A DNA stretch of 64,000 nucleotides, from the IMG/VR virus record IMGVR_UViG_3300025383_001098. One strand, 5' to 3'. The position numbers were made by a program, and so were the translations under genes. Positions 5,531 through 64,000 of the stretch are shown here, in pieces. How positions within the stretch are numbered: position 1 is the first letter of the stretch; each line of letters opens with the position of its first letter. The DNA comes from a virus. The notes beneath the pieces were generated by a model. The model saw only the letters and a program-made list of their open reading frames with translations, did no database searches and was not told the origin of the DNA.

Positions 5531-5533
5531 GAG

Positions 5534-6002: not shown

Positions 6003-6026
6003 TTTTTTAACCTGTAAGGAGAAGTC

Positions 6027-17612: not shown

Positions 17613-17738
17613 GTAAACTTTCTGAGTAGCTACAATGGAACACCGAAATACTTGTCAATGTCGACCATGAACAAGGACCGGCCATGAAGAGCAGGGCTAT
17701 CGCGGATTCAAGCGCCACAGAGAGTTTTCTTATTGTTG
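17604..17738 (+). ncRNA. Candidate structured ncRNA 2 (unrecognised)
   Basis: Closing stem 17604-17624/17718-17738 with 20 of 21 pairs; nested TAGC/GCTA, ATGG/CCAT, CTTGT/ACAAG stems. Confidence 0.62.
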
Positions 17739-17739
17739 T

Positions 17740-18060
17740 AATTCCTTTGTAGTGAAGGCATTGTGGACCCGGGTTCGATTCCCGGCATCTCCACCAGAAA
17801 GTGTATTAGCCACTTAATACATAAATGCGGAGTCGTACCGGTACACCTTCCGCGGGTTAGCATAAGGTTCGAAACTTATGTGTTAATACACTTTCTAATG
17901 GGGATGACAAGGTTTCGACATGGTGAGATAGCGAACAAGGCAACACGAGAGGTCAACTCGTAAAAAGCAAAAAAACGTAAACGCAAACGACGAACAGTTC
18001 GCATTAGCGGCCTAAACACCGCTTAGGGCAGGAAATGCCTCGTAACAGAAACAACCAGCC
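17740..18060 (+). ncRNA. ssrA: Circularly permuted (two-piece) tmRNA
   Basis: T-arm CCGGG-TTCGATT-CCCGG and CATCTCC-A-CCA (ends 17796) lie upstream of the 5' end GGGGATG (17900); G3:U70 pair; tag ORF 17983-18015 ANDEQFALAA*; outer ends approximate. Confidence 0.93.
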
Positions 18061-18080
18061 CCTTCGGGGGCTCCACTTTA
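18057..18080 (+). terminator. GC-rich UUCG hairpin at the tmRNA 3' end
   Basis: AGCCCC-TTCG-GGGGCT; weak U-tract. Confidence 0.55.
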
Positions 18081-18088
18081 CAATTTCA

Positions 18089-19222
18089 ATGATCCACTAT
18101 CAAGTCAACAATAAACAGATTTACAATCCGTATCTTGCTTACTACGAAAGTTTTCAGAGTGGAAAGCCTGTACAGTTTTATTGTCACGATGCAGAATATG
18201 ATCAGCTGGATTGGACTCAAGAACCTGCAGAATCGTTTGAAACGTTAATGGATCAACACGCACACCGTCTGCGTGACCGATATGAAAGATTAATTTTAGC
18301 CTGGTCGGGTGGCACTGATAGTCATACTATATATAATGTTTTCAAACGCAATGGTATACATATTGACGAAATTCTGTACAAAATTGATACCAGTCTTTGG
18401 CGTACAACAAATGGTCAGTTAATCCAAGACCCCACCGATCACTTGAATTGGTTAAAGGCAAATCACTGGGATCCAACTACTCGTATCACCAGTTATGATG
18501 AGTATACCACGGATCTTAAAGGCATAGATATTCGCAATGACGAATGGATTTTTCAAAATCGCGGAGATCTTGGAAAATATTTTGCTGTAGGCACTGGCGG
18601 TGAAGCCACTAAGTTTTTATGCGAACGTAATCATGCCGGGCATCATTGGGGACTTGTAGTTGGGTACGAAAAGCCTTTTGTTTTCAAACGCAACGGGTCA
18701 TGGTATTCAAGACAAAGTGATGTTTTATTAAATAGTGTGTTGGGTCAGCCCAACGTTGAATCTTTTTTCCTGGAGCCAATGCTACATTTAAAACAAAGTC
18801 ACCTGGCCAAACGAGTACTGAAACGATTTCAAAATATTGAAAATTCAGAAAACTATGCTACTGTAGTTAACCCAAACGGATTCCCGGGCGGATATAAAAT
18901 ATGGGCTTCGCTATTAGGCCGGCATGATGAGTTGTCCGACGGAATAAGTATCAATGGAAAATTTATTATAACTCATATGAAAGAATTTGCAATAGATTCA
19001 TCTGTTAATATTGGTGATTTGAATAACCATTATGCCGACCCTTCTCTGTTGGGCAGATTGAAAAAGGATAATAAAATTGCTGTAAACTATGTTAAAGGCC
19101 TGTATAATCTTGCAAGCGAACATAGATTTTATGAATTTTTAAATGAAAATTTTTTAGCAGAACCAGGGAAAGTGTTTAAATTAAAAACAACCTGGTCTAA
19201 GGAATACAATCTTGGGGAATAA
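18089..19222 (+). CDS. PP-loop (adenine nucleotide alpha-hydrolase-like) ATPase, paralog A
   Basis: LILAWSGGTDS; DW..EP, LRDRY, NGI.IDEI, G.EKP shared with 22437..23690. Confidence 0.72.
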   Translation: MIHYQVNNKQIYNPYLAYYESFQSGKPVQFYCHDAEYDQLDWTQEPAESFETLMDQHAHRLRDRYERLILAWSGGTDSHTIYNVFKRNGIHIDEILYKIDTSLWRTTNGQLIQDPTDHLNWLKANHWDPTTRITSYDEYTTDLKGIDIRNDEWIFQNRGDLGKYFAVGTGGEATKFLCERNHAGHHWGLVVGYEKPFVFKRNGSWYSRQSDVLLNSVLGQPNVESFFLEPMLHLKQSHLAKRVLKRFQNIENSENYATVVNPNGFPGGYKIWASLLGRHDELSDGISINGKFIITHMKEFAIDSSVNIGDLNNHYADPSLLGRLKKDNKIAVNYVKGLYNLASEHRFYEFLNENFLAEPGKVFKLKTTWSKEYNLGE

Positions 19223-19223
19223 A

Positions 19224-20192
19224 GTGACACGATCAATCTTATCAGTTGTAATATTTTTACTCAGCAGTATTGCAGTAGCTTCACCAGTGTTCAATGCCAA
19301 AGGTGAAAATATTGAAATTATAGTTCCATACGCTGTAGGTGGTGGTACCAGTAATCACGCACACTTGGTAGCCGAAATGTTTAGTGACTATGGGTGGCCA
19401 ACTGTGGTTATAAATCGCCCAGGCGGCGATGCTGTAATTGGAGCAAATGCGGCAGCACGGGCACAACCTAATGGACGTACCTTAATGGTTGCAGCCACCA
19501 GTGCAATGTCAGCCAATGTTGCATTTGGTGCTACTGGCATGGAATACAACGAGCACAGTTTTGTACCAGTTAGTCTTTTAAATCAATTTGGCATGGTACT
19601 GGCTGTTCCTGCCGATAGTCCAATTAAAAACTATGAACAATTTAAATTTTATATACGGGCTAACCCAGAAAAATTTAATATTGGATTTCATAATGGCCCG
19701 TTGAGTAATATTTTTTATGAGTGGGCCCGCGAAGAAAACCTTCCTCGCCCTAACATTGTTATCTACAAAGGATCGGCTCCAATGGATACTGACCTGGTTG
19801 GTGGGCATATTCCTTTTATATGGGATAACTATACTGCGCCATTGATTCCGTTAATTGAAAGTGGTCGGGTTAGAGTAATAGCCACAATGGATTCGGTATC
19901 GCTGTCTGCAATTCAACGTATACAGCCCAATGTTGATGTTGCTGATGTTAGTCGACAACATCCTGATTTACGTTTTGGAGTTTATTACGGATTATTTGCT
20001 CCAGCCGGAACTCCACCACAAGTTGTGGCCGAAATGAATCGCGTAATAAATCAAAGTGCAAAAACCAGCAAATTCCAAAAAGAAATTGTGACCATGGGTA
20101 TTAAAAACATCGGGGGTCGCCCAGAGGTATTGGGCAATTTACAACAGCGTGACATACAGACATTAAAAAAATTACCAAAAGAAAATCGTTAA
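19224..20192 (+). CDS. tctC: Tripartite tricarboxylate transporter substrate-binding protein (Bug/TctC) 1
   Basis: Signal peptide; IIVPYAVGG, NRPGGD..IGA, YKGSAP..TDLVGG, GLFAPAGTP; GTG start assumed (TTG 19212 possible). Confidence 0.9.
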   Translation: MTRSILSVVIFLLSSIAVASPVFNAKGENIEIIVPYAVGGGTSNHAHLVAEMFSDYGWPTVVINRPGGDAVIGANAAARAQPNGRTLMVAATSAMSANVAFGATGMEYNEHSFVPVSLLNQFGMVLAVPADSPIKNYEQFKFYIRANPEKFNIGFHNGPLSNIFYEWAREENLPRPNIVIYKGSAPMDTDLVGGHIPFIWDNYTAPLIPLIESGRVRVIATMDSVSLSAIQRIQPNVDVADVSRQHPDLRFGVYYGLFAPAGTPPQVVAEMNRVINQSAKTSKFQKEIVTMGIKNIGGRPEVLGNLQQRDIQTLKKLPKENR

Positions 20193-20906
20193 ATGAAACA
20201 ATGGTATGAATACCAGCTGGCAAATCAAGTGGCTCAACCTGAGTTAAATCAGCTTGATTATTTGCCAGTGGCTAATTTATCTCACTTGTGCCCGTTGCTG
20301 GAGCCGTTAAAAAATCTCAAAGATAAATCGTATTTCAGAAATTTTTGGAAAGATGCAAATTATGCCGAGCTGGCTGCACTCAACACCGGTGGAGCAGTAT
20401 CTGAACAGCAGATCTCAGACTGGTTGTTTAACGATCCCGAAACCAAAGAATCTTCGGAAAATACCGGTATCAATTATATAGAAGTACCTGACGGTATCAG
20501 AGCTCTTGTAATTGATGATATTGCTCAGCTGGTACAGGCATCACCAGAAGAAATAACTTTAGTAGTCAATTTGCAATTACCCGGTCAATATCTTTCCATG
20601 CACGTTGACCGCCTCAAATACGAAGAAAACGGTCTACGTCGTACTGACGATACCAATACTCCCTACAAGCGATTGCTCATGTTCATGGATGACTGGCAAC
20701 ATGGGCAGGCCTTCCAGATTGGCGATAACTTTTTAAAATGGCGGGCCGGTGATGTTTACCAATGGTCATCAGAAAACGTGTATCACGGCAGTTCAAACTT
20801 TGGATTCTACGATCGCTATGTACTAAGGATCGATGTTAATTATCCACATGAATGGCGCACGGATGCACAAAAGAATCAAAATAATATAACCCGAGAACAA
20901 CTATGA
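20193..20906 (+). CDS. Fe(II)/2OG-type double-stranded beta-helix oxygenase
   Basis: PGQ...HVD ... HGSSN.G...R (HxD...H triad). Confidence 0.65.
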   Translation: MKQWYEYQLANQVAQPELNQLDYLPVANLSHLCPLLEPLKNLKDKSYFRNFWKDANYAELAALNTGGAVSEQQISDWLFNDPETKESSENTGINYIEVPDGIRALVIDDIAQLVQASPEEITLVVNLQLPGQYLSMHVDRLKYEENGLRRTDDTNTPYKRLLMFMDDWQHGQAFQIGDNFLKWRAGDVYQWSSENVYHGSSNFGFYDRYVLRIDVNYPHEWRTDAQKNQNNITREQL

Positions 20907-21865
20907 AAAAATACTTATTAGTGGCCTTGGCCATACTGTCATGTTCTGCCTATGCTTGGCAACCTGATAAAAATACCCCCATTACAGTAATCACCGGTTA
21001 CCCAGCAGGATCCAGTAACGAAATTATCTTTAGAAAATTAGCAACCGTTGTTACAGCCAATACTGGAGTAAATTTTATTGTTAAACCTAAACCCGGTGTT
21101 GACGGAATCATTGCAATGAATGAATTGTATGATTCAAAACACGATGGATATTCTGTTGCCGTTCCAAGCATACCAACATTGTTTGTTGTTAATGATATTT
21201 CAAATAAAAATCTTAAGAAATACTCTTGGGATAGTTTTGCCACACCTATTGTAATAGGACAAACTCCTCTCGCAGTTATTGCCAGTGCAAAAAATCCTGT
21301 GACAAATTTTAAACAGTTAACGGATCTTTTAAAAACAACCACACAACCTATTAACATAGGACAAGCCGGCGGCACAATACGTGTAGCATATGAATATTTG
21401 ATGCACGAAACCAATGGCAATAAAAAAATGGTCAAAGACATTGGCTACAAAAGTTTTCCGCCAGAGATTGCCGACGTGGTTGGGGGACAAATTGATTTTG
21501 GTATTACTACATTAAGTAGTGTTTATCAAATAGCAAAAGACGGACGAGTACGAATTCTTGCCATTACCGAAGAATCTTCTAACTCGACTGAGTTTCCAAA
21601 AACCTATACCACGCTACCCAACTATAAATTTTCTACCGGATACTTGTTGGCTTTACCGCCTAAAACTGATCTTGAAATTCAGCAATGGTATTCAAGAGAA
21701 TTTATTCGTGCCATGCGAGATCCTGAATTTCAGCAGTGGGCAACAGATAATTTGATAACTACAGATATTAACTTAACATCAGACATTGCTGTAAAAGCAT
21801 TTGGAGCACAGATGCGTAAAAAACTGTCTCGAGTTATGACAGAACTAAGAAAAGGAGAAAACTAA
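20903..21865 (+). CDS. tctC: Bug/TctC substrate-binding protein 2
   Basis: Signal peptide; GYPAGSS, KPGVDG.IA, DGY, YK...DVVGGQID, GRVRILA. Confidence 0.88.
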   Translation: MKKYLLVALAILSCSAYAWQPDKNTPITVITGYPAGSSNEIIFRKLATVVTANTGVNFIVKPKPGVDGIIAMNELYDSKHDGYSVAVPSIPTLFVVNDISNKNLKKYSWDSFATPIVIGQTPLAVIASAKNPVTNFKQLTDLLKTTTQPINIGQAGGTIRVAYEYLMHETNGNKKMVKDIGYKSFPPEIADVVGGQIDFGITTLSSVYQIAKDGRVRILAITEESSNSTEFPKTYTTLPNYKFSTGYLLALPPKTDLEIQQWYSREFIRAMRDPEFQQWATDNLITTDINLTSDIAVKAFGAQMRKKLSRVMTELRKGEN

Positions 21866-22437
21866 TGTGGCCGTACTATAAACTTTTACCCGATTTACCG
21901 AGACCTCCGCAGAAATTTTTTGATGAGGTGGAAGTAGACGTTAATAATTTGCCAAACCAAACTGACATGCATGAAATCAGATATAGGAATGTTACTCGCG
22001 GTAACGAAAAGTTCCTTGCCAGTCCTGCGGTTCGTGTTCCAACAACACCAGAATTTGCACAATGGTTTAAAGAAAACATTGCACCTAACCCCAAGGATGT
22101 TAGTATTAACTACAGACATTGTAACAGTGACACTGGTGGGATTCATACCGACACCACAAGAGAATACAGATTAGCATACAATATACTTGACGGTGGTCCC
22201 AACTGTGGTGTTATCTATTATCAACAGCACGGGTATCCTTTGATGCGTGAACTTGCAATACAGCACTTAACCTATCACGATGTAACTCCAGTGCATAAAT
22301 TAGTTGGTCCAAACAATGTTTGGTTTTTAATGGATACAAGAATTCTGCACAGTTGCGAAGGAATTGAAAGTCCTCGAGTACAGTTTGACATTAGCTTTGA
22401 CACAGAAAGTGTTCCTCAAGAGTGGTTGGTTGACTAA
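21865..22437 (+). CDS. Fe(II)/2OG-dependent oxygenase-like protein
   Basis: IHTD ... LHS.EG...PR....S. Confidence 0.65.
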   Translation: MWPYYKLLPDLPRPPQKFFDEVEVDVNNLPNQTDMHEIRYRNVTRGNEKFLASPAVRVPTTPEFAQWFKENIAPNPKDVSINYRHCNSDTGGIHTDTTREYRLAYNILDGGPNCGVIYYQQHGYPLMRELAIQHLTYHDVTPVHKLVGPNNVWFLMDTRILHSCEGIESPRVQFDISFDTESVPQEWLVD

Positions 22438-23690
22438 TGTTTCATCCCTATAGCGACAAAAATAAATTTGGCTACTATACTGTAGGCAATGTCAATACCT
22501 ATAGGAAACTTGAAGCGATCGAAATAGGTCGCAAAACCAATCAGCCTGTTAGGTGGAATTTTAATAATGAAGTGTTTTCATCTGTTGATTGGTCTAAAGA
22601 ACCCGAAGCAAATCTGTTAGAATTGTATCGTCGGCGAGCACAACAAATTCGAGATTCCTACGACTATGTTGTTGTTATGCTAAGTGGCGGTGCTGACAGT
22701 ACTGCCATGCTCAAGAGTTTCTTAGACAACGGTATATACCCTGATGAAATTTTAAGTGCTCACGAACTCAATGGGGCCAAAGATCCGAATTGGTATTTAA
22801 CCGGAGAAGTTATAAATTCAGCAATACCTTGGGTACAAAAATATTTAGACACGGGAATTCCTACACGCTATCGAGTGGTAGACACATCAGAGTGGCAATA
22901 TAACTCTTTGAATAATTTAACAGTCGGAGCAAGAGATGATTCATATTATAATTTTAATAATGTGCATAATCTTGGCATGCTCGGACGCTTTAGATTTAGA
23001 GAAAACATAGAAGACTATCGCAAGATCATCGACTCCGGGTGCCGTTTGTGTCTTGTTTGGGGAGAACAAAAACCCCGTATATCCTATGACCGAACACGTC
23101 AATGTCATAAATTTTCATTTAGAGAAGCCAGCCTTGACGCTTATGTTGGTCCAATATATCAAGAAGTAGACCAGCCGGGCTACTTTGATGAATTGTTTTT
23201 TTCAAGCCCAAACATGCCGGAGATTGTAATAAAACAAGCATACGAGTGTTTAAAGTATCTTAGGAATCCCGAACTATTCCCCGATATTATTAAAGATCAA
23301 TCAACCTTTCCACGAATAATAAACAATCAAACGCCAGGCCTTGGGTTGACCCCAAACGCTGTAGAATTCAAGGTATGGCATCCATGGCATAGTAGTGTAG
23401 AGACTGTAAAAAAGATTCAAAGTTTTTGTTTAACCAAGGACGGATTACATTCAATAATATATCCTCATATAGAGCCTATTACTTACGATCAATTAAAAGG
23501 ACCAAGATCCGTCGTATACCCCAGAGATGGTTGGTTAGTAAATGCCAATCCAGAAGCAGCTAAAAAATGGTTCCAGGGCTATTATTCTAATGTAGTTGGA
23601 TTACGCTTAGAACAACATCCAACTACACAAGCTCTTGATGTCATGGGCGGAGAATGGTACCTGAGAAATGATTATTATTTGCCATTTTAA
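22437..23690 (+). CDS. PP-loop ATPase, paralog B
   Basis: VVMLSGGADS; DW.KEP, IRDSYD, NGI.PDEI, GEQKP. Confidence 0.72.
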   Translation: MFHPYSDKNKFGYYTVGNVNTYRKLEAIEIGRKTNQPVRWNFNNEVFSSVDWSKEPEANLLELYRRRAQQIRDSYDYVVVMLSGGADSTAMLKSFLDNGIYPDEILSAHELNGAKDPNWYLTGEVINSAIPWVQKYLDTGIPTRYRVVDTSEWQYNSLNNLTVGARDDSYYNFNNVHNLGMLGRFRFRENIEDYRKIIDSGCRLCLVWGEQKPRISYDRTRQCHKFSFREASLDAYVGPIYQEVDQPGYFDELFFSSPNMPEIVIKQAYECLKYLRNPELFPDIIKDQSTFPRIINNQTPGLGLTPNAVEFKVWHPWHSSVETVKKIQSFCLTKDGLHSIIYPHIEPITYDQLKGPRSVVYPRDGWLVNANPEAAKKWFQGYYSNVVGLRLEQHPTTQALDVMGGEWYLRNDYYLPF

Positions 23691-32643: not shown

Positions 32644-33021
32644 ATGGAATACGATATGTATCAAGACATGCAGGACTCAACTTGGTTCAAACATAAAGTC
32701 CGAACCAGTGATAGCTATGCCCAAAACTTATATGCCGCATTGTGCAATATGCAATGGCAAAAGTTAGATGTAATGCCGATACTTAAAGATGAGTATTGGC
32801 ATTGTAGTTGGCGTAGTGCTGGCGGTATTGTTGCTGACCTGCGATGCGAGGGCGACTATATGGATTGGTATTGTAGTGGTATACAGGATTTTGGCACTGA
32901 TGAAGCCGATCCCAGATTCAATGGTGGCGGGCATGTGGCCGAAGGCCATGTGACCGAGGAGATCAAGCATGACCTTGGTTTGCTTGGATGGAAACCCGTG
33001 CCATATGAAAAGGACGAATAG
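32644..33021 (+). CDS. Conserved phage protein, paralog 1
   Basis: YAQNLYAALCN, CSWR, YMDWYCSG; similar to 33454..33828. Confidence 0.75.
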   Translation: MEYDMYQDMQDSTWFKHKVRTSDSYAQNLYAALCNMQWQKLDVMPILKDEYWHCSWRSAGGIVADLRCEGDYMDWYCSGIQDFGTDEADPRFNGGGHVAEGHVTEEIKHDLGLLGWKPVPYEKDE

Positions 33022-33453: not shown

Positions 33454-33828
33454 ATGCCAAGAAAAGTGTTTAATTTAGAACGCGATTTACGCAGTACGGA
33501 TTGGATTATTTCAAAAGTCCGTGCCCATGAGATCTACGCTCAAAATTTATACGCCGCACTATGTAACAATGCCTATGCTCCAAGCGATGTTTGGGGTTTA
33601 CTAAGCAATATTACCTGGGACTGTACTTGGCGATATGCGGCTACCTTGGTCTCGGACATTCGCGAAGACGAAAGCTACATAGATTGGTACTGTTCAGGTA
33701 CCGGTTTTAAAGGTACAGACTTTACTGGTTTTGTAGAAGAAAGTTATGTTACCGAAGAAATAGAAAAGGATTTCAACACTATTGGATGGTTGCTAACAAC
33801 CAGAAGATATTACGAGTTTCCGGGTTAA
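33454..33828 (+). CDS. Conserved phage protein, paralog 2
   Basis: YAQNLYAALCN, CTWR, YIDWYCSG; GTAAATA late-like motif upstream. Confidence 0.75.
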   Translation: MPRKVFNLERDLRSTDWIISKVRAHEIYAQNLYAALCNNAYAPSDVWGLLSNITWDCTWRYAATLVSDIREDESYIDWYCSGTGFKGTDFTGFVEESYVTEEIEKDFNTIGWLLTTRRYYEFPG

Positions 33829-34032
33829 CTATGGATTATAGTAGCCGTTAACGAAATAATTTTTTTATTTCGTCTGGGCTAAATAAATTTGTAGTTCAAA
33901 TTATTGACATATATATTTTAGTATGTTAATATCAACCAGTAATTAACACATTACTAACTTTACGAAAATAACATTGAAGATAGTATGATACTATCGAATA
34001 TGCGAAAATAACATTTAAAAAGGAATTAAACA

Positions 34033-35211
34033 ATGAAGAAGTTATTACTTGCTCTTGGCTTAACCATGTCTATTGGTTTCGCGCAAGCTCAATCAAATGT
34101 TACCGTATACGGTATCTTGGACGTAGGATATGTTGGTAGTAGTCAACAACTTACTTCCACAGCAGGACAAGCCGCTACTAAAACCACAATCAATCAGTTT
34201 GGTCAATCAGCAGAACAAACTTCACGCTTTGGTTTTAAAGGCAACGAAGACCTTGGTGGTGGCACCAGTGCGTTCTTTACAACTGAGTTTCAGTTATATC
34301 CAGAAGACAATAATCTCTCTGGTAGTACAAATTCAGGTTTGTTGAACCGTCAAACTTTTGTTGGACTTAAACAAACAGGCATTGGCTCTTTTGCTGTTGG
34401 CCGTCAATATACTCCATTGTTTAATGCTGCGGCAGTGACAAGTCCTGGTGGATACAACAACGTTGTTGGTGACGTAGTTTATCTGGCCAGTGGTTCAGGT
34501 GCTGCAGGTACAAGTACAGCAACAACTATCACAGGTCAAGAAAACGGTCTTGGTTTTACCAACCGTGCTAACAATGCTATTACATTCCAAACAGATACTT
34601 TCAAAGGTTTTTCTGCTAACGGTATGTATCAGCTAAACAACAAGAACACAACACAGACTGGTGCAGCCGCTGGTGGCGAAACTAATCAATATGGTTATGG
34701 CTTGGCAGTTACTTATGTCTACGACAAATTGTTAATCAATGCCGCTAAACAATCATTCACACAATACACAACAGGTACAGCTGCATCATTCACTGATGTG
34801 AATACTGCTTCTTTTGTAAGTATCAAAGACAGTCAAAACTATGCTGGTGCTACTTATGACTTTGGTATTTTAAAAGCCTATGCTCAATATGTTAGCCGTA
34901 CTTTAACATCTACTTTAGATGGTAGTCAGTTTGGTAAACGTACAGCACAACAAATTGGTGTTCGTGGTTACTTTACACCAAAGATTGAAGGCTGGGCAAG
35001 CGTTGGTAACGGTAAATGGGACCAATACGGTTCAAATGCTGGTAGCGTTCCATTCACAGCTTATCAACTTGGTACTAACTACTGGTTAAGCAAGCGTACT
35101 AACTTGTATGCAATCTTTGGTAGTACACAATCGTCTGGCAATGCAGCAACTACTGCTGGTGCAGACAGTTCAAAAGATATGTATGCCGTAGGTATGCGTC
35201 ATACTTTCTAA
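34033..35211 (+). CDS. Gram-negative trimeric porin, betaproteobacterial type
   Basis: Signal peptide; SNVTVYGILDVG, SRFGFKG.EDLGGG, NRQTFVGL, LSKRTNLYA, terminal GMRHTF. Confidence 0.93.
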   Translation: MKKLLLALGLTMSIGFAQAQSNVTVYGILDVGYVGSSQQLTSTAGQAATKTTINQFGQSAEQTSRFGFKGNEDLGGGTSAFFTTEFQLYPEDNNLSGSTNSGLLNRQTFVGLKQTGIGSFAVGRQYTPLFNAAAVTSPGGYNNVVGDVVYLASGSGAAGTSTATTITGQENGLGFTNRANNAITFQTDTFKGFSANGMYQLNNKNTTQTGAAAGGETNQYGYGLAVTYVYDKLLINAAKQSFTQYTTGTAASFTDVNTASFVSIKDSQNYAGATYDFGILKAYAQYVSRTLTSTLDGSQFGKRTAQQIGVRGYFTPKIEGWASVGNGKWDQYGSNAGSVPFTAYQLGTNYWLSKRTNLYAIFGSTQSSGNAATTAGADSSKDMYAVGMRHTF

Positions 35212-35231: not shown

Positions 35232-35254
35232 AAACCCACTTAGGTGGGTTTTTT
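35232..35254 (+). terminator. Intrinsic terminator
   Basis: AAACCCAC-TTAG-GTGGGTTT followed by T-run. Confidence 0.82.
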
Positions 35255-35255
35255 G

Positions 35256-35284
35256 TTGACTTTGTTTTTTCAAGAGTTTATAAT
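35256..35284 (+). promoter_or_regulatory. Sigma70 promoter (leaderless downstream gene)
   Basis: TTGACT-17-TATAAT; ATG at 35291. Confidence 0.75.
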
Positions 35285-35290: not shown

Positions 35291-35722
35291 ATGTCATATA
35301 TTCCCACAACTTTTCCTGCAAACGTAACAGTACCAAACGGCGGAACCAGTCATTCATTATACGGTGCCGTCCCACCAACTGGTAACGTAACCCTAACTGC
35401 CGGTACAGGTGTTACAAATTGGGCTACTACCGCCAGTTACAATTACAATACTGCCATAGCCGAACTTGGTGACAAAGGCGGGTCGGGTAAACTCATACTC
35501 AAAGGACCAGATGCCGATATTGAAATGAATGGTAAAAGTTTAGGCGAAGCTATAACAGCAATCGAAGAAGCATTACTAATTCCGGGCAGACTGAATCGAA
35601 ATACCGAACTTGAAAAGGAATTTGCTGATCTTAAAGCCTTGGGCGAACAATATGTAGCAATGGAAAAGAAGTATCAAGAACAAAAACGGGTATGGGACAT
35701 ACTCAAAAAGCAAGACCAGTAA
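35291..35722 (+). CDS. Hypothetical protein with C-terminal coiled coil
   Basis: L.G.DADI..NGKSL...IEE.L...N.ELE..F..LK.LGEQY. Confidence 0.7.
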   Translation: MSYIPTTFPANVTVPNGGTSHSLYGAVPPTGNVTLTAGTGVTNWATTASYNYNTAIAELGDKGGSGKLILKGPDADIEMNGKSLGEAITAIEEALLIPGRLNRNTELEKEFADLKALGEQYVAMEKKYQEQKRVWDILKKQDQ

Positions 35723-35746
35723 TTGCTTTTCGTGCTATAATAGTCT

Positions 35747-35962
35747 ATGGACTCTAAATCAAATTGCGTAGTACTTAATACATTTCACCTTAAACCTAAT
35801 CAAATTGAAAACATCATACACTGGTGTAATCAACATTTTGGATCAGATAAATGGAACTTTATAACAAACTTCCCCAGTTACCATTGGAGGTTCTATTTAC
35901 CCGACTCGCGATCAGAAACATTATTTAGATTAAAATGGAGTGGAAATGCCAATAACAATTAG
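35747..35962 (+). CDS. Small paralog-array protein 1
   Basis: WC...FG...W...F....SETLFRLKW. Confidence 0.7.
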   Translation: MDSKSNCVVLNTFHLKPNQIENIIHWCNQHFGSDKWNFITNFPSYHWRFYLPDSRSETLFRLKWSGNANNN

Positions 35963-36200
35963 AGTAGATTGGGACACCAAGCGAAGTACAGGTCAAGAGT
36001 GGAATGAACTATTAGCCTGGACCGTTGAAACCTATGGCTTGCCCGGGGAACGTGTTAGTTTTCATCCCACACATGATTGGATGGACTTTACATTTGATGA
36101 TGAAAAAGATGCTCTTATGTTTCAGCTAAAAACAGGCGGACACCAACGTACCAAACAAGAATACACAATAGAATTTGTAAACGGGATAATCAATGGTTAG
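35946..36200 (+). CDS. Small paralog-array protein 2
   Basis: F.F.DEKDALMFQLK; GGAG SD. Confidence 0.7.
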   Translation: MPITIRVDWDTKRSTGQEWNELLAWTVETYGLPGERVSFHPTHDWMDFTFDDEKDALMFQLKTGGHQRTKQEYTIEFVNGIING

Positions 36201-36471
36201 AGAAGGTATATTGGTTAAAGAAATACTCATGGGCGACTGTGATGATCCTTACCTGTATGCGGCTTTTCCTATACACGAATGGGAAAAGACTGAAGAGTGT
36301 GCCTACATTAAAAAAAATTTAGACGAAGGCGACGAACTTGTATTTTTTGTCGACAATGATACATCACATTGGGGTTTTATAGTTCGCATATATGCCCCTT
36401 TAAAAGGCGAAGCTCTGACATTTTATCGTTTGAAGTATATGGGAGTAAATCAACATGTACGTATGGGATGA
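36193..36471 (+). CDS. Small paralog-array-like protein 3
   Basis: C-terminal EALTFYRLKY. Confidence 0.65.
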   Translation: MVREGILVKEILMGDCDDPYLYAAFPIHEWEKTEECAYIKKNLDEGDELVFFVDNDTSHWGFIVRIYAPLKGEALTFYRLKYMGVNQHVRMG

Positions 36472-36712
36472 GGAGAGTCGCAAAAAGTTTGAGCCAACGC
36501 AGGACATGCTCAGTCGATGCCATCGAGTCTTAATCGGCGATCCTGCGTTTCGTATGTGGCAAATGAAACGTTGGTGTCGCGAACAAGATTTAAGTTTGTT
36601 ATGGTCCGAGATAATAGAAACAGCCGATGTTAGTATAGAGTTTGATCACGTGGCGGCCTTTTACTTTATCGATGCTAAGGATGCTACTTTGTTTAGTTTA
36701 AAATATCGATGA
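36455..36712 (+). CDS. Small paralog-array protein 4
   Basis: WC...FYF.DAKDATLFSLKY. Confidence 0.7.
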   Translation: MYVWDEESRKKFEPTQDMLSRCHRVLIGDPAFRMWQMKRWCREQDLSLLWSEIIETADVSIEFDHVAAFYFIDAKDATLFSLKYR

Positions 36713-36933
36713 CAAAAGTTGAATTATGGCCGCCGCCTGCTTGGACAGAAGTTATAATTCTGTGGAAGGATATTACAGAAGGGCCACGCTATCCAATTAA
36801 AGAGATACTTGAATGGCTCAGTAGTCATCCAGGTGGCCGATATCATGTACACGGATATAAAAGTACTGAAGGGTTTGCTTTTAGATTTGAAAGCGAAAAT
36901 GATGCAACATTATTTAGATTGAGATGGGAATGA
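36709..36933 (+). CDS. Small paralog-array protein 5
   Basis: WL...FRFESENDATLFRLRW; ATGA overlap. Confidence 0.7.
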   Translation: MTKVELWPPPAWTEVIILWKDITEGPRYPIKEILEWLSSHPGGRYHVHGYKSTEGFAFRFESENDATLFRLRWE

Positions 36934-37202
36934 TAGATTACTATTACGAAATTCGGCCTGATGTGACAGTATTTGGTTGTAGTGTACGCTACCTTGCACG
37001 TTACGAGTTTCATCCTGGTGAAGCAAGTCGCGGTGAATTTAAGTTGCACGACGAAGCTCTAAGGAATAGTCATCGTGTATGGATGCAAAATCGCAATGGC
37101 ACATTTTTAGTACAAGAGCGTGGCAGAGATGTACTACGGCCTATTGCTGAACGAGAGTTTGCCTGGATTAAACTACAAGCTCGGGACATTGAACAGTTAT
37201 GA
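36930..37202 (+). CDS. Hypothetical protein
   Basis: ATGA overlap. Confidence 0.65.
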   Translation: MIDYYYEIRPDVTVFGCSVRYLARYEFHPGEASRGEFKLHDEALRNSHRVWMQNRNGTFLVQERGRDVLRPIAEREFAWIKLQARDIEQL

Positions 37203-37441
37203 ATCCCTATCAGTATCGGATAACCCGGGAGCAATACGAAGAGTTTCTTAAGGACTTGGTGTGGACACGTCTTAAGGCGCCCGACTACCGTTTTGGACAA
37301 GCATTCCTTAACTACTTTCCCGAGATCAGTAAGATTATGCGTGAAGATGGAGACCTGGGCACCCAAAGTGAATATGTATTGTACAATGAAGAATGGGAAC
37401 CAACGGCACGTATGCGATGTGAGCAGTGGGTGGAGAAATGA
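37199..37441 (+). CDS. Hypothetical protein
   Basis: ATGA overlap; RFGQAFLNYF motif. Confidence 0.65.
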   Translation: MNPYQYRITREQYEEFLKDLVWTRLKAPDYRFGQAFLNYFPEISKIMREDGDLGTQSEYVLYNEEWEPTARMRCEQWVEK

Positions 37442-37677
37442 CTGTAGCTTATAAAGTAGCCGCTGGTTTCGCTGGTAAACGCAGAAGTGCCAGCTCACGA
37501 TTTGAGGAGCCGGTAAAGAATCCTTGGGAGCCATATCAGCTAAAGATATTTCCTAAAAAAATTAATGATCGTTGGTATGCGCCAGGAGACATGGTCTATC
37601 GTCGATTTGTATCCAGTCCCGGTGGTGGTTACTGGCAGTATGGTGACGATTTTGACTATTTAAAGTGGCGCTCGTGA
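37438..37677 (+). CDS. Hypothetical protein
   Basis: ATGA overlap; GGAG SD. Confidence 0.6.
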   Translation: MTVAYKVAAGFAGKRRSASSRFEEPVKNPWEPYQLKIFPKKINDRWYAPGDMVYRRFVSSPGGGYWQYGDDFDYLKWRS

Positions 37678-37880
37678 TCAATTGGTCTTGGTTAATTGCT
37701 CGTTTTATTTCGGCCCTGGGATCATGGTTAGATGCCAGCAACCTAAGAAATCGTGTATATAAACTTGAACAAGAGAAGGAAATCATGTATACTGCATTAG
37801 AGGATGTACGACGCATGGACCCAGAAGGGCGCATTGGCTGGTATGCCAAATCAGTATTGGATAATATAGATGGGAAATAA
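37674..37880 (+). CDS. Hypothetical protein
   Basis: GTGA overlap. Confidence 0.55.
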   Translation: MINWSWLIARFISALGSWLDASNLRNRVYKLEQEKEIMYTALEDVRRMDPEGRIGWYAKSVLDNIDGK

Positions 37881-38286
37881 ACAATTACTAATCGGAGTTA
37901 CATTTATAGCAATCTCACTGGCCTTTGGCTTGGGAGGATTTGCCTATACTGTCGGAACTCCAGACGATGCAGGGCCCGGGTTCTTTCCCTTGGTAGTCAG
38001 CGTGTCGTTGGGACTTCTTGGCGTATGTTCAGTTATTAAAAGTTTTTTTAACAGAGACACAGTAACATTAAAATTAAGAAACCTTGCAATAATTACCGCT
38101 TCATTATTGGCCTTTGCTGTTGCAACAGAATATATTAACATTGTTGTTGGTATTGTATTGTTGGTAATTACATCATCGTTTGCCAGTGAAAAATATTCAA
38201 TAAAAAATGTTGTATTGATTTCTGCAGGATTAGTTGTAGTTGCATATCTATTTAAATATCTTTTAGGGCTAAATTTACCACTATGA
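37870..38286 (+). CDS. tctB: Tripartite tricarboxylate transporter small membrane subunit TctB
   Basis: Y.VGT....GPGFFP; four TM helices; F...LGL.LP end; adjacent to tctA. Confidence 0.88.
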   Translation: MGNKQLLIGVTFIAISLAFGLGGFAYTVGTPDDAGPGFFPLVVSVSLGLLGVCSVIKSFFNRDTVTLKLRNLAIITASLLAFAVATEYINIVVGIVLLVITSSFASEKYSIKNVVLISAGLVVVAYLFKYLLGLNLPL

Positions 38287-39782
38287 TAGACACACTAAAT
38301 TATCTTGTAATGGGATTTGGCCATGCCCTTACTGTTCAAAATTTACTTTATTGCGCCATTGGGTGTTTCATCGGAACGTTAATAGGGCTACTACCTGGTC
38401 TTGGACCAATTTCTACTATTAGCCTATTATTGCCACTGACTTATACCATGCCCACTACAGGTGCTCTCATTATGCTTGCCGGCATTTACTATGGCGCACA
38501 GTATGGAGATAGCGTCAGTGCTATTACTATGAAGATTCCCCACGCATCAAGCATAGTTGCCTGTATAGATGGATATCAAATGCATCTCAATGGGCAAACA
38601 GGCCTGGCTTTGTTTACTGCCGGTGTTAGTAGTTTTATAGGCGGGACAGTTGCTGCTGTAGTAATTGTATTTTTTGCACCTGTATTGGGAGAAATGTCAT
38701 TCTTATTTGGCCCAAATGAATACTGTATGCTGATGCTGTTGGGCTTTGTCTGCGTTAGTTTGATTACCACAGGAAGTCTGCTTAATGGACTTGGTATGGT
38801 GTCTATAGGAATATTAGTCGGCATGGTTGGTACAGATGTCAACAGTGGTGTGACTCGTTACGCCATGGGCTTACCATTCTTAATGGACGGAATAGGAATC
38901 ATCAGCGTAGCAATAGGTAGCTTTGGCCTGGCTGAAATAATTAAAAATTTAGACAATCGAGATGAACGTACACCCTTTACAGGCAATATCAAATTGATTC
39001 CAACCTGGGCAGAGTTTAAACGTATCATACCTTCGGCATTGCGTGGTAGCGTTGTTGGTAGTTTCTTGGGATTATTACCTGGAGGTGGCCCGACTATTGC
39101 TCAGTACGGTGCTTATGCTGTAGACAAAAAGTTTAGTCGATATCGAGATGAAATGGGCAAGGGTGCAATAGAAGGAGTTGCCGGACAGGCCGCTGCAGAT
39201 GAAGCCGCAGCTCGTACAAGTTTTATTCCTTTATTATCAATTGGCATTCCTGAAAATGCTGTTATGGCCTTGATGTTAGGTGCGTTAATGATCAAAGGCA
39301 TCACACCAGGTCCGCAGATGATTACCAAACACTCAGAAGTGTTTTGGGGTCTGATTGCTTCCATGTGGATTGGCAATGTGTTCTTGTTGATATTAAACGT
39401 GCCACTGGTCAAATACTGGTTAAGTATTTTTAAGATTCCTTATAGTGTACTTTTTCCTTGTATTTTATTCTTTTGTTGCTTAGGTACATTCAGTGGCAAT
39501 AACAATATCAGCGACATCTATACTACGGCTATATTTGGTATCATGGGCTATTGGTTTTTAAAATTGGGACTTGAAGCGGCTCCGCTGATGTTGGGCTATA
39601 TTTTAGGACCCATGCTGGAAGAACACTTTAGACGTGCTATGATGATCAGCAGGGGTAGCTTCAGCCCGTTTTGGGAACGCCCAATTAGCTGTACTATGTT
39701 GATTTTAATAGGATTTTTTATTGTTTATAGCCTATATTCCTGGTTGACCAATAAAGGAAGAAGTGCTATAATAAAAGTGTAG
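38283..39782 (+). CDS. tctA: Tripartite tricarboxylate transporter permease TctA
   Basis: GTLIGLLPGLG, AGIYYGAQYG, DGY.M, G.LPGGG, AAA..SFIPLLSIGIP, ASMWIGN. Confidence 0.95.
   Translation: MIDTLNYLVMGFGHALTVQNLLYCAIGCFIGTLIGLLPGLGPISTISLLLPLTYTMPTTGALIMLAGIYYGAQYGDSVSAITMKIPHASSIVACIDGYQMHLNGQTGLALFTAGVSSFIGGTVAAVVIVFFAPVLGEMSFLFGPNEYCMLMLLGFVCVSLITTGSLLNGLGMVSIGILVGMVGTDVNSGVTRYAMGLPFLMDGIGIISVAIGSFGLAEIIKNLDNRDERTPFTGNIKLIPTWAEFKRIIPSALRGSVVGSFLGLLPGGGPTIAQYGAYAVDKKFSRYRDEMGKGAIEGVAGQAAADEAAARTSFIPLLSIGIPENAVMALMLGALMIKGITPGPQMITKHSEVFWGLIASMWIGNVFLLILNVPLVKYWLSIFKIPYSVLFPCILFFCCLGTFSGNNNISDIYTTAIFGIMGYWFLKLGLEAAPLMLGYILGPMLEEHFRRAMMISRGSFSPFWERPISCTMLILIGFFIVYSLYSWLTNKGRSAIIKV
39744..39772 (+). 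promoter_or_regulatory. Sigma70 early promoter inside the tctA 3' end
   Basis: TTGACC-17-TATAAT, extended -10 TG. Confidence 0.78.
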
Positions 39783-39814: not shown

Positions 39815-40063
39815 ATGGTAAAATTAAATAAGTATGTAGTAAAAGCAACAATTCAAACTGCGGCATTCTTTGCTGTAGCGGTTACAATATCATCCGTGAC
39901 CGCTTTGATATTAGAATATCTTCAACCCACAGGAACCCAAATTTTGGGAACCTTGGCTATTGTGGCCATGTTGTTTTGCATCTATAATATGATCAAAATA
40001 CAAGCTGGTATTTTAGAATCACGAGACAAATTAAATAAACAAATCGACAAAGTAGTAAAATGA
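39815..40063 (+). CDS. Small membrane protein
   Basis: Two hydrophobic helices. Confidence 0.65.
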   Translation: MVKLNKYVVKATIQTAAFFAVAVTISSVTALILEYLQPTGTQILGTLAIVAMLFCIYNMIKIQAGILESRDKLNKQIDKVVK

Positions 40064-40731
40064 AAATCTATATCTCTAACTATCGCAATCATTGGCTGTC
40101 ACCCTATACAATCCTAAAGACTGTATGTTTTTGGGAACGGGACGAGGACGTATTTTACAACCACGAAGATAAACCCGGACACAAATATGATCGCTGGGTT
40201 GAACTTTTAGATCCCGTCTGTGGTGCATTACGCAAGTTTCTTGACCTTGTACACCCCAGGATTAACTATATTAAAATTGATCGTTATGACACTTGGTCAA
40301 TGGATCATACACTAAGTCCCATTATCTTGCCTATGCTTCGACAGTTGCGTGATACCAAACACGGTGCTCCGCATGTCGATGACGAAGATGTTCCAGACTT
40401 GCTAAAGTCCACTTCAGCACCGCCCAAAGAAAATGATTGGGACACAGATGACAATTGGTTTAAGCGTTGGGATTATGTACTCAACGAAATGATCTTTGCA
40501 TTTGAACATAAGGTAGACGATTCGTGGGAAGATGCATTCCGTACAGGTAAAATGAGTCACAAAACAGTTGCCTGTGAATGGGACGAGAACGGTAAAGCTA
40601 CGATGTACCAGTGGGAAGAACTACCGGACCATACTTACAAATATGACTATGATGGTGCTAACAAAGTACACGAACGTATTCAAAACGGCTTTTGCTTGTT
40701 TGGAAAATATTATCAAAACTTGTGGGATTAA
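40060..40731 (+). CDS. Conserved phage hypothetical protein
   Basis: DTWSMDHTL..II.PML.QL, RWD.VL.EMI.AF, GF.LFGKYY..LWD. Confidence 0.78.
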   Translation: MKIYISNYRNHWLSPYTILKTVCFWERDEDVFYNHEDKPGHKYDRWVELLDPVCGALRKFLDLVHPRINYIKIDRYDTWSMDHTLSPIILPMLRQLRDTKHGAPHVDDEDVPDLLKSTSAPPKENDWDTDDNWFKRWDYVLNEMIFAFEHKVDDSWEDAFRTGKMSHKTVACEWDENGKATMYQWEELPDHTYKYDYDGANKVHERIQNGFCLFGKYYQNLWD

Positions 40732-40733
40732 CA

Positions 40734-41564
40734 ATGCGTATTAACTTAATGTCAGACTTGCATCTTGAATTTGCGGACCTTACATTGCCCGGCGGTGATG
40801 TACTAATCTTGTCTGGTGACTTATGCGAAGCTAAAAATATTAAAAAAGAACTTTACAATCGAGATATGGTTTTACTTGAGCACGAACAACAAGATCGTAG
40901 ACCGGATCGCTGGTTCCGTTTCTTAGAAGAAGAGTGTAGCAAGTACCGAGAAGTCGTTTATGTAATGGGCAACCATGAACACTATGGCTTTCAGTTTCAG
41001 AAAACCTATGCCCATATTGCCAGTCAGTTGCCCGACAATGTACACCTGTTGGAAAATCAAACTTATACAGTCGAGGATGTGACCTTTGTAGGTGCTACCT
41101 TATGGACTGATATGAACAAGCAGGATCCCTTGACTATGTATCATATGCAACAGGCAATGAATGATTATCGTCAAGTTACCATGTTTAACGAAGCCAAATC
41201 AGTTTACCATCGTTTGACTCCAGAACGTACTGTAGAGGATCATTACCGATCTAAAAACTTTATTCGCGAAACAGTAGAAAATAAGTTTGATCAAAAGTTT
41301 GTTGTTGTTACACACCATGCACCCAGCAAGGCCAGCGTCAAGCCACGCTATGCCGATGATCATTTAATGAATGGCGCCTACAGTTCAGACCTAAGCGAAT
41401 TTATTTTGGCTAACCCGCAGATCAAAGCATGGACTCACGGGCACACGCACGATCTGTTTGATTACATGGTTGGATCAACACGTATTATGTGTAACCCACG
41501 TGGTTATAAATATTATGAGGAACGTGCCGAAGAATTTGACCCCAGCTTTGGATTTGATATTTAA
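40734..41564 (+). CDS. Calcineurin-like metallophosphoesterase
   Basis: SDLH, GD, GNHE, THH, HGHTH, NPRGY. Confidence 0.9.
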   Translation: MRINLMSDLHLEFADLTLPGGDVLILSGDLCEAKNIKKELYNRDMVLLEHEQQDRRPDRWFRFLEEECSKYREVVYVMGNHEHYGFQFQKTYAHIASQLPDNVHLLENQTYTVEDVTFVGATLWTDMNKQDPLTMYHMQQAMNDYRQVTMFNEAKSVYHRLTPERTVEDHYRSKNFIRETVENKFDQKFVVVTHHAPSKASVKPRYADDHLMNGAYSSDLSEFILANPQIKAWTHGHTHDLFDYMVGSTRIMCNPRGYKYYEERAEEFDPSFGFDI

Positions 41565-62293: not shown

Positions 62294-62669
62294 AAATATC
62301 AATCTTGTAGCGTTTTATTATATGAAACCACGTGCTGGTGTAAACACTACGGTCAAAGGCTGGATGGATAATCCCAATAATGTTCGTTGGGACGAGCGAG
62401 TAGAAATCACCCGTGGTCTTAAAAAAGACAGCGTTCATGCTAAAGTCATTATGGACCTTAGTAATAAAACTGTTACCAAAAATGCCTGGGGCGATAATAA
62501 AGATTTTGACGGATTGTTTAAGCATTTCTTTACAGGATATCATCAATATATCACAACTGTAATGACCCAGTTGGATCCTGAATATTTTAATAAAATGCTC
62601 GACGAGATGCAGGCAGAATTAGACGCCGAGAAAGAACCAGAAGCAAGTGCAGAGCCCGTTGCCCAGTAA
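62283..62669 (+). CDS. Hypothetical protein
   Basis: 128-aa ORF overlapping the clamp loader end. Confidence 0.65.
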   Translation: MNNKNINLVAFYYMKPRAGVNTTVKGWMDNPNNVRWDERVEITRGLKKDSVHAKVIMDLSNKTVTKNAWGDNKDFDGLFKHFFTGYHQYITTVMTQLDPEYFNKMLDEMQAELDAEKEPEASAEPVAQ

Positions 62670-63840
62670 TACCTTTTGTGTATTACCCTGGACTCATTTT
62701 TTTCACGAGCCCAACGGCAAAATTATGCCCTGTTGTTCTGCCAATAGCCGTTCGGCAGATTTTGGAAATATTCAGGACTTTAATTCTGCAGACCAAATTG
62801 TCAACACCGACGCTATGAAACAACTGCGTCAAGACATGTTAGCAGGACGTCAAAATCCTGCGTGTAGTCAATGTTATCGAGAAGAATCCCATGGTCTAAC
62901 CAGTTTTAGGCAACATAAGAATAACGACATCATTGATGTTAATCTCGAAGCCTTACTCGATAACACCCAACAAGACGGAACTTTGGACAACTTTAAAATA
63001 CAGTATTGGGATTCAAGGTTCAGCAACGTATGTAATTATAAATGCCGTATGTGCGGCCCAGATTATAGTCATACCTGGGCTGAGGAATCGTATCGCGGAT
63101 CTAATCGCAAAGATTATGTAATCAAAGCACACAATACAGACAATTGGTCAACTATTATTAATCGTTATGGCGATTTGACTCAATTGAAAGAAGTGTACTT
63201 TGCCGGTGGAGAATCACTTTATCAAGTCGAACACTGGTCTATGCTTGATCAATTAGACCAATTGGGCCTACACAATATAAAAATAACCTATACTACTAAT
63301 CTTAGTAAACTTGGATTTGGGCAACGTAGGTTAGAAGATTATTTAAAAAGATTTACAAATGTATTGTTTATTGTAAGTTTAGATGCCGTTGGGCCGCTGT
63401 TGGAATATATACGTTCTGGAAGTAGTTGGACTACTACACAAAACAATATCAATACTATACTTCCATTAGCAAGATTAAAATACAATATTGTAATAACAGT
63501 TTACAATGTATTACACTTATCGGAGTTAATTGATTTTGCAGTTGATCATACAACAAATTTTGCAGGCACTGATTTTACAGTAGCACACGAACCTGTTGCA
63601 CAAAATATTACTAATCTTCCAACAGAATTAAAAGATTTGGCCAGGGATAGATTATTATCCAACCGCAACTACTCAATTCTTAAAGATAAGATAGATGCTG
63701 TGATAAATTATATGTACGACTCGCCGGTTAGCAGTTGGCAGGCAACTATTGCAGAAACCAATCAATTAGACATAATTAGAAACGAAAGCGTATTATCAGT
63801 AGTACCAGAATTTAAGGAATATTGGCATGAAAAGATTTAA
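62647..63840 (+). CDS. Radical SAM/SPASM-twitch protein (paralog of 617..1927)
   Basis: FCVLPW, PCC, CSQC, CNYKCRMC, YFAGGE. Confidence 0.85.
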   Translation: MQSPLPSNTFCVLPWTHFFHEPNGKIMPCCSANSRSADFGNIQDFNSADQIVNTDAMKQLRQDMLAGRQNPACSQCYREESHGLTSFRQHKNNDIIDVNLEALLDNTQQDGTLDNFKIQYWDSRFSNVCNYKCRMCGPDYSHTWAEESYRGSNRKDYVIKAHNTDNWSTIINRYGDLTQLKEVYFAGGESLYQVEHWSMLDQLDQLGLHNIKITYTTNLSKLGFGQRRLEDYLKRFTNVLFIVSLDAVGPLLEYIRSGSSWTTTQNNINTILPLARLKYNIVITVYNVLHLSELIDFAVDHTTNFAGTDFTVAHEPVAQNITNLPTELKDLARDRLLSNRNYSILKDKIDAVINYMYDSPVSSWQATIAETNQLDIIRNESVLSVVPEFKEYWHEKI

Positions 63841-64000
63841 ACAAACAGATCACGGTGACAGAGGTTGGTTTGTAGGGCAATGGGAAAAGGCTGTGTTTAG
63901 AACCGATCTATTTGAAGTAGCTCACGGTTTTAATGTAGCCGGTGAACACAGTCCGAATCACTATCATCAAAAAGCCACTGAAATTAATTTAATAACATCG
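63827..64000 (+). CDS. Cupin-domain protein, 3'-truncated by window edge
   Basis: AAGGA SD; GWFVG.W...FEVA....G....HYH..ATEINLI. Confidence 0.65.
   Translation, partial: MKRFKQTDHGDRGWFVGQWEKAVFRTDLFEVAHGFNVAGEHSPNHYHQKATEINLITS

Follow-up and report, generated by a model that had tools for sequence, protein, structure and literature searches.

The tctB-tctA Pair and Its Products

The DNA analyzed here is a window of 64,000 nucleotides (the whole stretch under study, to which all positions refer) taken from the minus strand of the IMG/VR virus record IMGVR_UViG_3300025383_001098, which has 127,215 bases. Two adjacent genes of this window encode TctB and TctA, the membrane subunits of a tripartite tricarboxylate-type (TTT) importer. 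Such importers (TC 2.A.80) are composed of TctA (12 transmembrane segments), TctB (4 transmembrane segments) and TctC (PMC5812351). The pair is laid out as follows:

37870-38286, + strand: tctB, small membrane subunit of 138 amino acids (PF07331, E 8.8e-15, 55.5 bits for a cut-off of 29.1, profile positions 2-137 of 137)
38283-39782, + strand: tctA, large permease subunit of 499 amino acids (PF01970, E 4.4e-140, 467.5 bits for a cut-off of 28.9, profile positions 1-423 of 423)

A full-length tctB-tctA pair inserted among small phage genes had been proposed in the first-pass annotation of this DNA. This was confirmed by the matches to the whole Pfam profiles and by the presence of ten small open reading frames (ORFs) upstream of the pair. 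The start of tctB overlaps the stop codon of the preceding small ORF, and tctB and tctA overlap by ATGA. The first product was recognized as a TctB subunit from its profile match, its size and the adjacency of its gene to tctA, and 4-5 hydrophobic segments were detected in its hydropathy plot. It is 36-47% identical to the TctB encoded just upstream of the bacterial orthologues of tctA. Among phage relatives TctB is approximately 50% identical, in line with the poorly conserved small subunit of this family.

The TctA proteins of bacteria contain about 12 membrane helices (9-12 are predicted). In the phage protein, 10 segments were found by hydropathy, and about 20 helical elements, short and broken ones counted, were visible in the AlphaFold2 model, which is all-helical (predicted local distance difference test, pLDDT, 80.8; predicted template modelling score, pTM, 0.80). 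A sequence search of the PDB returned no relative of TctA or TctB, and nothing was found by Foldseek with the TctA model. With VIA-align, this model gave weak matches, whose Z of 5.2-6.6 is too low to be relied upon for helical proteins. They were to elevator-type carriers of the ion-transporter superfamily, i.e., LaINDY, VcINDY and Drosophila INDY (the INDY/DASS group), Pho90, ArsB and the TRAP proteins SiaQM/IseQM. These matches appear compatible with the accepted classification of TTT systems and prove nothing by themselves. Both copies of the duplicated family motif, G-x3-G-x3-G-x2-P-G-x-G, are kept in TctA, at residues 27-41 and 255-269. This motif (G-Hy3-G-Hy3-G-Hy2-P-G-Hy-G) was assigned to the first and seventh membrane helices of TctA (PMC5812351, citing Winnen 2003). 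Its glycines and prolines were invariant over 37 TctA sequences, other viral types included. Besides, of 258 columns without variation in 80 bacterial orthologues, the phage protein retains 241, the 17 changes being mostly conservative.

This conservation extends to the phage lineage itself. When TctA was compared with its counterparts on two diverged viral contigs (L007 and L008), the non-synonymous divergence (pN) was 0.11-0.13 for a synonymous divergence (pS) of about 0.74, which is saturated, giving a ratio below 0.05. Such a low pN with saturated synonymous sites points to strong purifying selection on TctA. This is illustrated by an identity of 82% for TctA between these phages, most neighbouring proteins being 33-78% identical. 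Right after tctA, an ORF of 82 amino acids (39815-40063) with 2-3 hydrophobic segments also adjoins tctA in L007, L008 and L010 (50-57% identity). Its product could be a small membrane partner.

Viral Context

The record is a fragment of an uncultured giant freshwater (jumbo) phage. Its completeness was estimated at 35% by CheckV, implying a full genome of several hundred kilobases. Viral hallmarks include a ribonucleotide reductase, tail-fibre and other virion or structural PHROGs, a DNA ligase and radical-SAM proteins. Nearly all genes lie on one strand, with structural and replication genes on either side of tctBA. Across the whole 127-kb record, one match to TctA and two to TctC were obtained. 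A blastn search of the region against GenBank phages gave a single match of 136 bases, to Limnohabitans phage DC31. No PHROGs family was found for TctA or TctB, and the TctA matches in the GenBank phage collection amounted to seven doubtful records of at most 39% identity, among them a Salmonella draft contig, fragments of 2-6 kb and faecal contigs.

The arrangement around tctBA is reproducible. A contig from another metagenome (L006/L122, metagenome 3300013093) is collinear with the window from about position 30 kb to 50 kb, nearly all its proteins being 96-100% identical, and spans both tctBA junctions and a porin gene located upstream of the pair in identical gene order. The porin junctions were also identical in a third assembly (L121, metagenome 3300020733). 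In total, the identical TctA protein is present on 12 contigs, the longest of 191 kb. In more diverged relatives (L007/L010 and L008), whose backbone proteins are 33-86% identical to those of this phage, tctB-tctA is again flanked by homologues of the small genes of the window. The G+C content (GC) of tctA is 0.415, for 0.404 in the window, versus 0.53-0.72 at bacterial loci with close TctA relatives. At third codon positions (GC3), the value is 0.37 for tctA and about 0.30 for phage structural genes.

These observations bear on the possibility of an artefact, in which tctBA would be host DNA mis-assembled or mis-binned onto a phage contig, or a recent passenger gene without function. In favor of it, TctA is 71-75% identical to proteins of Burkholderiales, the contig is an incomplete metagenome assembly, and four TctA matches in IMG/VR (L100, L101, L104 and L107) lie at contig ends in high-GC DNA that resembles host flanks. 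Yet the same junctions were recovered from independent metagenomes, gene order is kept in relatives with backbone proteins of only 33-86% identity, GC and GC3 are phage-like, the pair is joined to the adjacent phage genes by overlapping start and stop codons, and the protein is conserved between phage lineages whose synonymous sites are saturated. Chimerism and host contamination were therefore rejected on the basis of the repeated junctions, the conserved order and the base composition, and an artefact of any of these kinds is extremely improbable. Hence the host chimera that the first-pass annotation had named as one way its reading could fail is contradicted by junctions recurring in two other metagenome assemblies, by syntenic relatives and by a phage-like GC. 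With reproducible viral flanks (L006, L121) and syntenic relatives (L007, L008, L010), tctBA can be classified as auxiliary metabolic genes.

Two further observations concern the contig itself. The record ends at position 63053, and the window continues for 947 bases (63054-64000), with a radical-SAM-like gene (62647-63840) spanning that end, which indicates that a longer version of the contig exists. Moreover, two radical-SAM-domain proteins (phrog_14086) are encoded at opposite ends of the window, at 617-1927 and 62647-63840.

Origin of the Pair

The closest TctA proteins from named genomes belong to Burkholderiales (Comamonadaceae, Sphaerotilaceae and Alcaligenaceae), and tctB is located directly upstream in every case. 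In a FastTree phylogeny of 144 rows, the TctA proteins of the window, L007, L008 and L010 grouped with 23 metagenome proteins in one clade of 27 rows (support 97), all 80 rows from bacterial genomes falling in another group (support 96). Similar results were obtained with IQ-TREE on 66 rows using other viral TctA types as outgroup, with a support of 90 for the phage type (26 rows) and of 100 for bacterial genomes. Amino-acid composition, taken as a proxy of GC, separated phage-type from bacterial TctA weakly and was not used. According to these trees, the simplest reading would be a single capture followed by inheritance among phages. Of 301 Burkholderiales genomes sampled, no more than three (G011, G122 and G210) contained a TctA orthologue of at least 71% identity, most best matches being at about 50-56%. 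This count does not depend on three genomes flagged as unpublished (G039, G307 and G218). This rarity points to a donor lineage with a specific, patchily distributed tctBA type.

The bacterial orthologues were then examined for neighbouring receptor genes, using a TctC profile built in this analysis and run on all ORFs of the 80 bacterial tctBA loci. A TctC gene was found within 5 kb of tctBA at 13 loci and at none of the other 67, and the classical tctC-tctB-tctA position was not observed in this search at any of the 80. Two of these loci are flanked by unrelated genes, i.e., those for a DUF3034 protein, a globin, an enoyl-CoA hydratase, QueF, a chemotaxis receptor and an AraC regulator. In three freshwater Comamonadaceae genomes with an orthologue, 9-29 TctC matches each were counted. 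Membrane pairs of this kind may serve many unlinked receptors. Since the orthologues are mostly stand-alone tctBA pairs, the split layout of the phage was probably inherited from its bacterial donor rather than being a viral oddity.

TctC Receptors and Enzyme-Like Genes

The receptors expected of a TTT system are encoded elsewhere in the window:

19212-20192, + strand: TctC receptor 1, 326 amino acids, with a signal peptide (PF03401, E 1.6e-25, 90.6 bits for a cut-off of 27)
20903-21865, + strand: TctC receptor 2, 320 amino acids, with a classic Sec-type N-terminus (PF03401, E 2.8e-17, 63.6 bits for a cut-off of 27)
18035-23690, + strand: six-gene block in which both TctC genes are combined with four enzyme-like ones (homologues adjoin TctC genes in G005, G003, L108 and L124)

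Both genes combine the profile match with signal-peptide-like N-termini and were accordingly assigned to the TctC receptors, a class of exported binding proteins of about 30-35 kDa. From the end of the second (21865) to tctB (37870), the distance is 16.0 kb, as first described. No Pfam family was found for the four other genes of the block (18035-19222, 20193-20906, 21865-22437 and 22437-23690), which include a putative PP-loop ATPase and a putative oxygenase. The relatives of TctC1 comprise about 85 metagenome-only clusters (37-95% identity), after which identity drops sharply to at most 33% for named bacterial Bug/TctC proteins. In addition, the Pfam scores of the phage TctC proteins are 63-90 bits versus about 200-300 bits for typical bacterial copies. 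With TctC proteins remote from named bacterial ones on the one hand and a bacterial-like TctBA on the other, the system looks hybrid, old phage-type receptors being combined with a channel captured from Burkholderiales.

Co-occurrence across phages, which the first-pass annotation had put forward as a check, was seen for tctBA and TctC genes on both related contigs that are long enough (G003 and G005). On these contigs, TctC genes lie 19-25 kb from tctBA, beside homologues of the enzyme-like genes of the window. Between relatives, TctC is 26-47% identical, versus 82% for TctA.

These figures can also be read differently. Phage TctBA might mainly serve the orphan TctC/Bug receptors of the host, adding membrane channels that may limit uptake; more organic acids would then be taken up for energy and carbon, and the phage TctC proteins would be another question. 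Such a role is in line with the 67 of 80 bacterial loci that have no TctC gene within 5 kb, the unrelated flanks of two of them, the 9-29 TctC matches of the freshwater Comamonadaceae, the slow change of TctA relative to TctC, and the lack of co-transcription between tctBA and the TctC genes of the phage. A precedent is provided by Bordetella pertussis, in which 76 Bug genes face two sets of tctAB, so that orphan TctC proteins share few TctAB pairs (PMC5812351). By the same analogy, phage TctBA might use host orphan receptors. However, tctBA and phage TctC genes occur together on both contigs in which they could be sought, and a role directed mainly at host receptors is rather unlikely, although it is compatible with the importer that we favor below.

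Other TctA Types in Related Phages

In IMG/VR, further low-GC viral contigs were found to carry other TctA types, which are 38-57% identical to one another and to the TctA of the window. Two of them (L113 and L116) have many backbone genes in common with this phage (51-89% identity), and their TctA, 46-47% identical, is located at another site, beside a homologue of the window gene at 2191-3369. An interpretation of the other viral types as diverged orthologues was ruled out by this combination of a distant TctA, a different site and a close backbone. Indeed, orthologous TctA changes slowly (82% identity at similar backbone divergence), which indicates separate acquisitions of the other types. 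In L108-type relatives, TctA, a TctC-like gene and a homologue of the PP-loop enzyme follow each other in a row, and two long contigs (L103, 182 kb, and L115, 142 kb) have tctB-tctA pairs of their own.

Two further cases were noted besides. In the low-GC viral contig L102, the gene for a TctA of a different type (4718-6169, 48% identity) is immediately preceded by one of the tryptophan-halogenase family (3020-4546, E 1e-85). The 11-kb IMG/VR contig L099 (the same as L009), which may be viral or cellular, carries a tctB-tctA pair (1584-3487) 58% identical to that of the window; it gave one weak distant match to this phage, and an AAA ATPase gene is found nearby.

Taken broadly, the lineage could be viewed as a modular uptake platform, in which a slowly changing, host-derived TctBA would serve fast-changing TctC/enzyme cassettes, and possibly orphan receptors of the host, with equivalents assembled several times from different TctA types. 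Within this picture, TctBA may have replaced or supplemented a phage-typical short TctA without TctB. We regard it as a tentative proposal, possible but on the doubtful side. If true, giant phages would assemble and re-wire import across the outer membrane, the periplasm, the inner membrane and the cytoplasm for a specific small molecule.

Porin Gene

Upstream of tctBA, the window encodes an outer-membrane porin with expression signals of its own:

34033-35211, + strand: outer-membrane porin, 392 amino acids (Porin_4 PF13609, E 1.7e-32, 113.9 bits; Porin_1 PF00267, E 3.7e-11, 43.5 bits)
33904-33932, + strand: promoter-like site before the porin gene, TTGACA-17-TAATAT with TG (10 of 12 positions)
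35232-35251, + strand: terminator-like hairpin right after the porin stop codon (8-bp stem followed by a T run)

The product has a Sec-type signal peptide and a C-terminal Phe, in keeping with the signal peptide and terminal aromatic residue of general porins of Gram-negative bacteria. Its nearest named relatives, 51-54% identical, are from Polynucleobacter; no porin match was found in the GenBank phage collection. A search of the 301 Burkholderiales genomes at E 1e-70 gave no match, a threshold too strict for this result to be informative. The gap between the end of the porin gene (35211) and tctB (37870) is 2.66 kb, in agreement with the 2.7 kb or so first reported.

Given its promoter-like site and terminator, the porin gene looks like a single-gene cassette. 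L007, L008 and L010 have no porin gene at the equivalent position, and none was detected in five viral fragments that are related or carry TctA. Hence the porin gene behaves as a variable, optional add-on. Nevertheless, on a viral contig of 91.7 kb (L124), a porin gene (72% identity) is followed in a row by homologues of the oxygenase-like gene, of TctC (44% identical to TctC1) and of the PP-loop enzyme. This arrangement is the best evidence here, at the level of gene order, tying the porin to the uptake genes.

Rearrangements were also apparent in this region. A gene for a calcineurin-like metallophosphoesterase (40692-41564) is downstream of tctBA in the window, and its homologue (70-78% identity) in L007 and L008 is upstream, beside a homologue of the gene at 33454-33828, where this phage has the porin. 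These differing positions indicate that the region was rearranged between relatives. The small genes at 32644-33021 and 33454-33828 are adjacent paralogues (42% identical), both kept in relatives.

Prophage-encoded porins, such as Lc of phage PA-2 and NmpC of lambdoid prophages, have been associated with changes of the cell surface. In another reading, the membrane pair, perhaps along with the porin, could act on the envelope without any nutritional role, through a block of superinfection, the masking of receptors, or a TctC-based sensing comparable to that of BctC with BctE in Bordetella. The location of the pair among small early-type genes without assigned function would fit such a role, and TctC homologues may act in signalling (PMC5812351). 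It is hard to reconcile, though, with the retention in TctA of nearly all residues invariant in bacterial transporters and with very strong purifying selection over its whole length. Moreover, relatives repeatedly tie TctA or TctC to genes for cytoplasmic enzymes, which fits substrate import. A purely envelope-directed function thus seems improbable.

Transcription Context and Host

The region preceding tctBA is occupied by the small ORFs mentioned above, with the following features:

35291-37880, + strand: ten small overlapping ORFs of 71-143 amino acids, co-directional, upstream cistrons of tctBA (ORF listing)
35256-35284, + strand: sigma-70-like promoter, probable start of the unit 35291-39782, TTGACT-17-TATAAT (11 of 12 positions, consensus match)
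39744-39772, + strand: sigma-70-like promoter inside tctA at its 3' end, before the gene at 39815 (11 of 12 positions with TG, consensus match)

Homologues of most of these ten ORFs adjoin tctBA in L007, L008 and L010, and the eight that were scanned against PHROGs gave one weak match. No good terminator-like site was found between the promoter at 35256-35284 and position 39782. This layout is a weak indication that the host polymerase transcribes the unit early in infection, tctBA coming last in it.

A two-piece transfer-messenger RNA (tmRNA) of the Betaproteobacteria type was identified at 17665-18075, just upstream of the TctC/enzyme block (RF01850, 158.8 bits; RF04321, 145.1 bits). Considering this tmRNA, the Burkholderiales-derived tctBA, the nearest named porins and the phage GC of 0.40, the host is probably a betaproteobacterium of the Polynucleobacter-like freshwater kind.

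Proposed Importer

As judged from their sequences, TctB, TctA, the porin and both TctC proteins are complete and seem to be functional. We consider it fairly probable that tctB-tctA is a genuine, long-resident pair of this phage which, together with the phage TctC proteins, forms a TTT-type importer of organic acids. According to this proposal, tctBA would have been captured once from a Burkholderiales lineage that usually lacks a neighbouring tctC, and then inherited within freshwater jumbo phages of a betaproteobacterial host. After infection, the host polymerase would transcribe the pair at the end of the small-gene unit. TctBA would insert in the inner membrane as the ion-gradient-driven channel of the importer; which ion is coupled to transport has not been settled for TTT systems (PMC5812351). 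The two exported TctC proteins would capture a carboxylate in the periplasm and hand it over to TctBA, and the enzymes encoded among the TctC genes would modify this cargo once it has reached the cytoplasm. The porin, as a variable add-on, may ease passage through the outer membrane. The timing of expression, the assembly in the membrane, the docking of TctC, the direction of transport and the substrate are what we infer from the genes.

The whole route from porin to cytoplasmic enzymes had been proposed in the first-pass annotation. This hypothesis is plausible and partly supported, as it gains from the intact parts, the Sec signals, the co-occurrence with TctC genes, the porin linkage in L124 and the mostly stand-alone bacterial pairs; the porin is optional, as its absence from L007, L008 and L010 indicates.

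Several points weigh against the proposed importer. With 35% of the genome in hand, a second TctA may be encoded elsewhere. Within the phage-type TctA clade, viral context was established for the window and three other viral loci. The compatibility of TctC with TctBA is assumed, as the TctC proteins are highly divergent and TctBA is bacterial-like, and their genes are in separate transcription units, 16 kb apart. Finally, promoter matches in the region are at about chance density (42 found for 38 expected), which makes the deduction of early transcription a weak one.

A functional importer of this kind would have several consequences. It offers a natural experiment on whether one TctBA pair can serve many unrelated TctC proteins and on what TctB does; indeed, the receptors with which the bacterial-type TctBA of this phage has to cooperate are at most 33% identical to named bacterial ones. 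Structural work on TctA and TctB, neither of which has a solved structure, could benefit from the compact phage proteins. The TTT systems of freshwater Burkholderiales were linked to the uptake of terrestrially derived organic acids (PMC7597016), and its control by a virus would be relevant to the flow of carbon in lakes.

Comparison With Known Systems

The phage genes share with canonical bacterial TTT systems a TctA with the duplicated motif, a small TctB encoded directly upstream with overlapping stop and start codons, and exported TctC proteins. They differ from the canonical tctCBA-tctDE locus in being phage-borne, in lacking a tctCBA operon and in having receptors 16 kb away, within an enzyme cluster and at most 33% identical to named bacterial proteins; no regulator pair (tctDE) was seen next to the phage tctBA. 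The canonical layout was thus not found at this locus, but it is a layout and not a requirement of the family, since 67 of the 80 bacterial orthologues have no adjacent tctC. Encoding tctBA apart from the receptors is also known for unlinked bacterial pairs, such as TpiBA with TphC of Comamonas sp. E6 and tctAB of Bordetella pertussis. Both membrane subunits of the Comamonas system are essential to terephthalate uptake with TphC (PMC5812351).

The porin has counterparts in the Lc and NmpC porins of prophages, in that an outer-membrane porin of the general type is encoded by a phage gene that has expression signals to itself. In contrast to these, it is of the Porin_4 type of Burkholderiales, belongs to a jumbo phage and is found beside TctC and enzyme genes in one relative.

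Among viral genes, tctA was listed as a "domain hit only" among the putative auxiliary genes of SUP05 viral contigs (PMC4164917; review PMC6359870). Unlike that hit, this phage has a bacterial-type TctB and a full-length TctA, the genes of which are separate from the TctC/enzyme block. The literature searches yielded no paper on a complete TTT importer encoded by a virus or on TTT genes in jumbo phages. The new element is the combination of a canonical bacterial-type TctB-TctA pair with phage-type receptors. A parallel is provided by cyanophages with pstS, in which a component of a binding-protein-dependent uptake system of high affinity is likewise contributed by the virus (PMC6359870). Those phages bring the receptor only and use the membrane parts of the host, whereas this phage adds the membrane channel and a porin. 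A virus encoding every layer of a binding-protein-dependent importer would be much rarer than one carrying single parts such as PstS.

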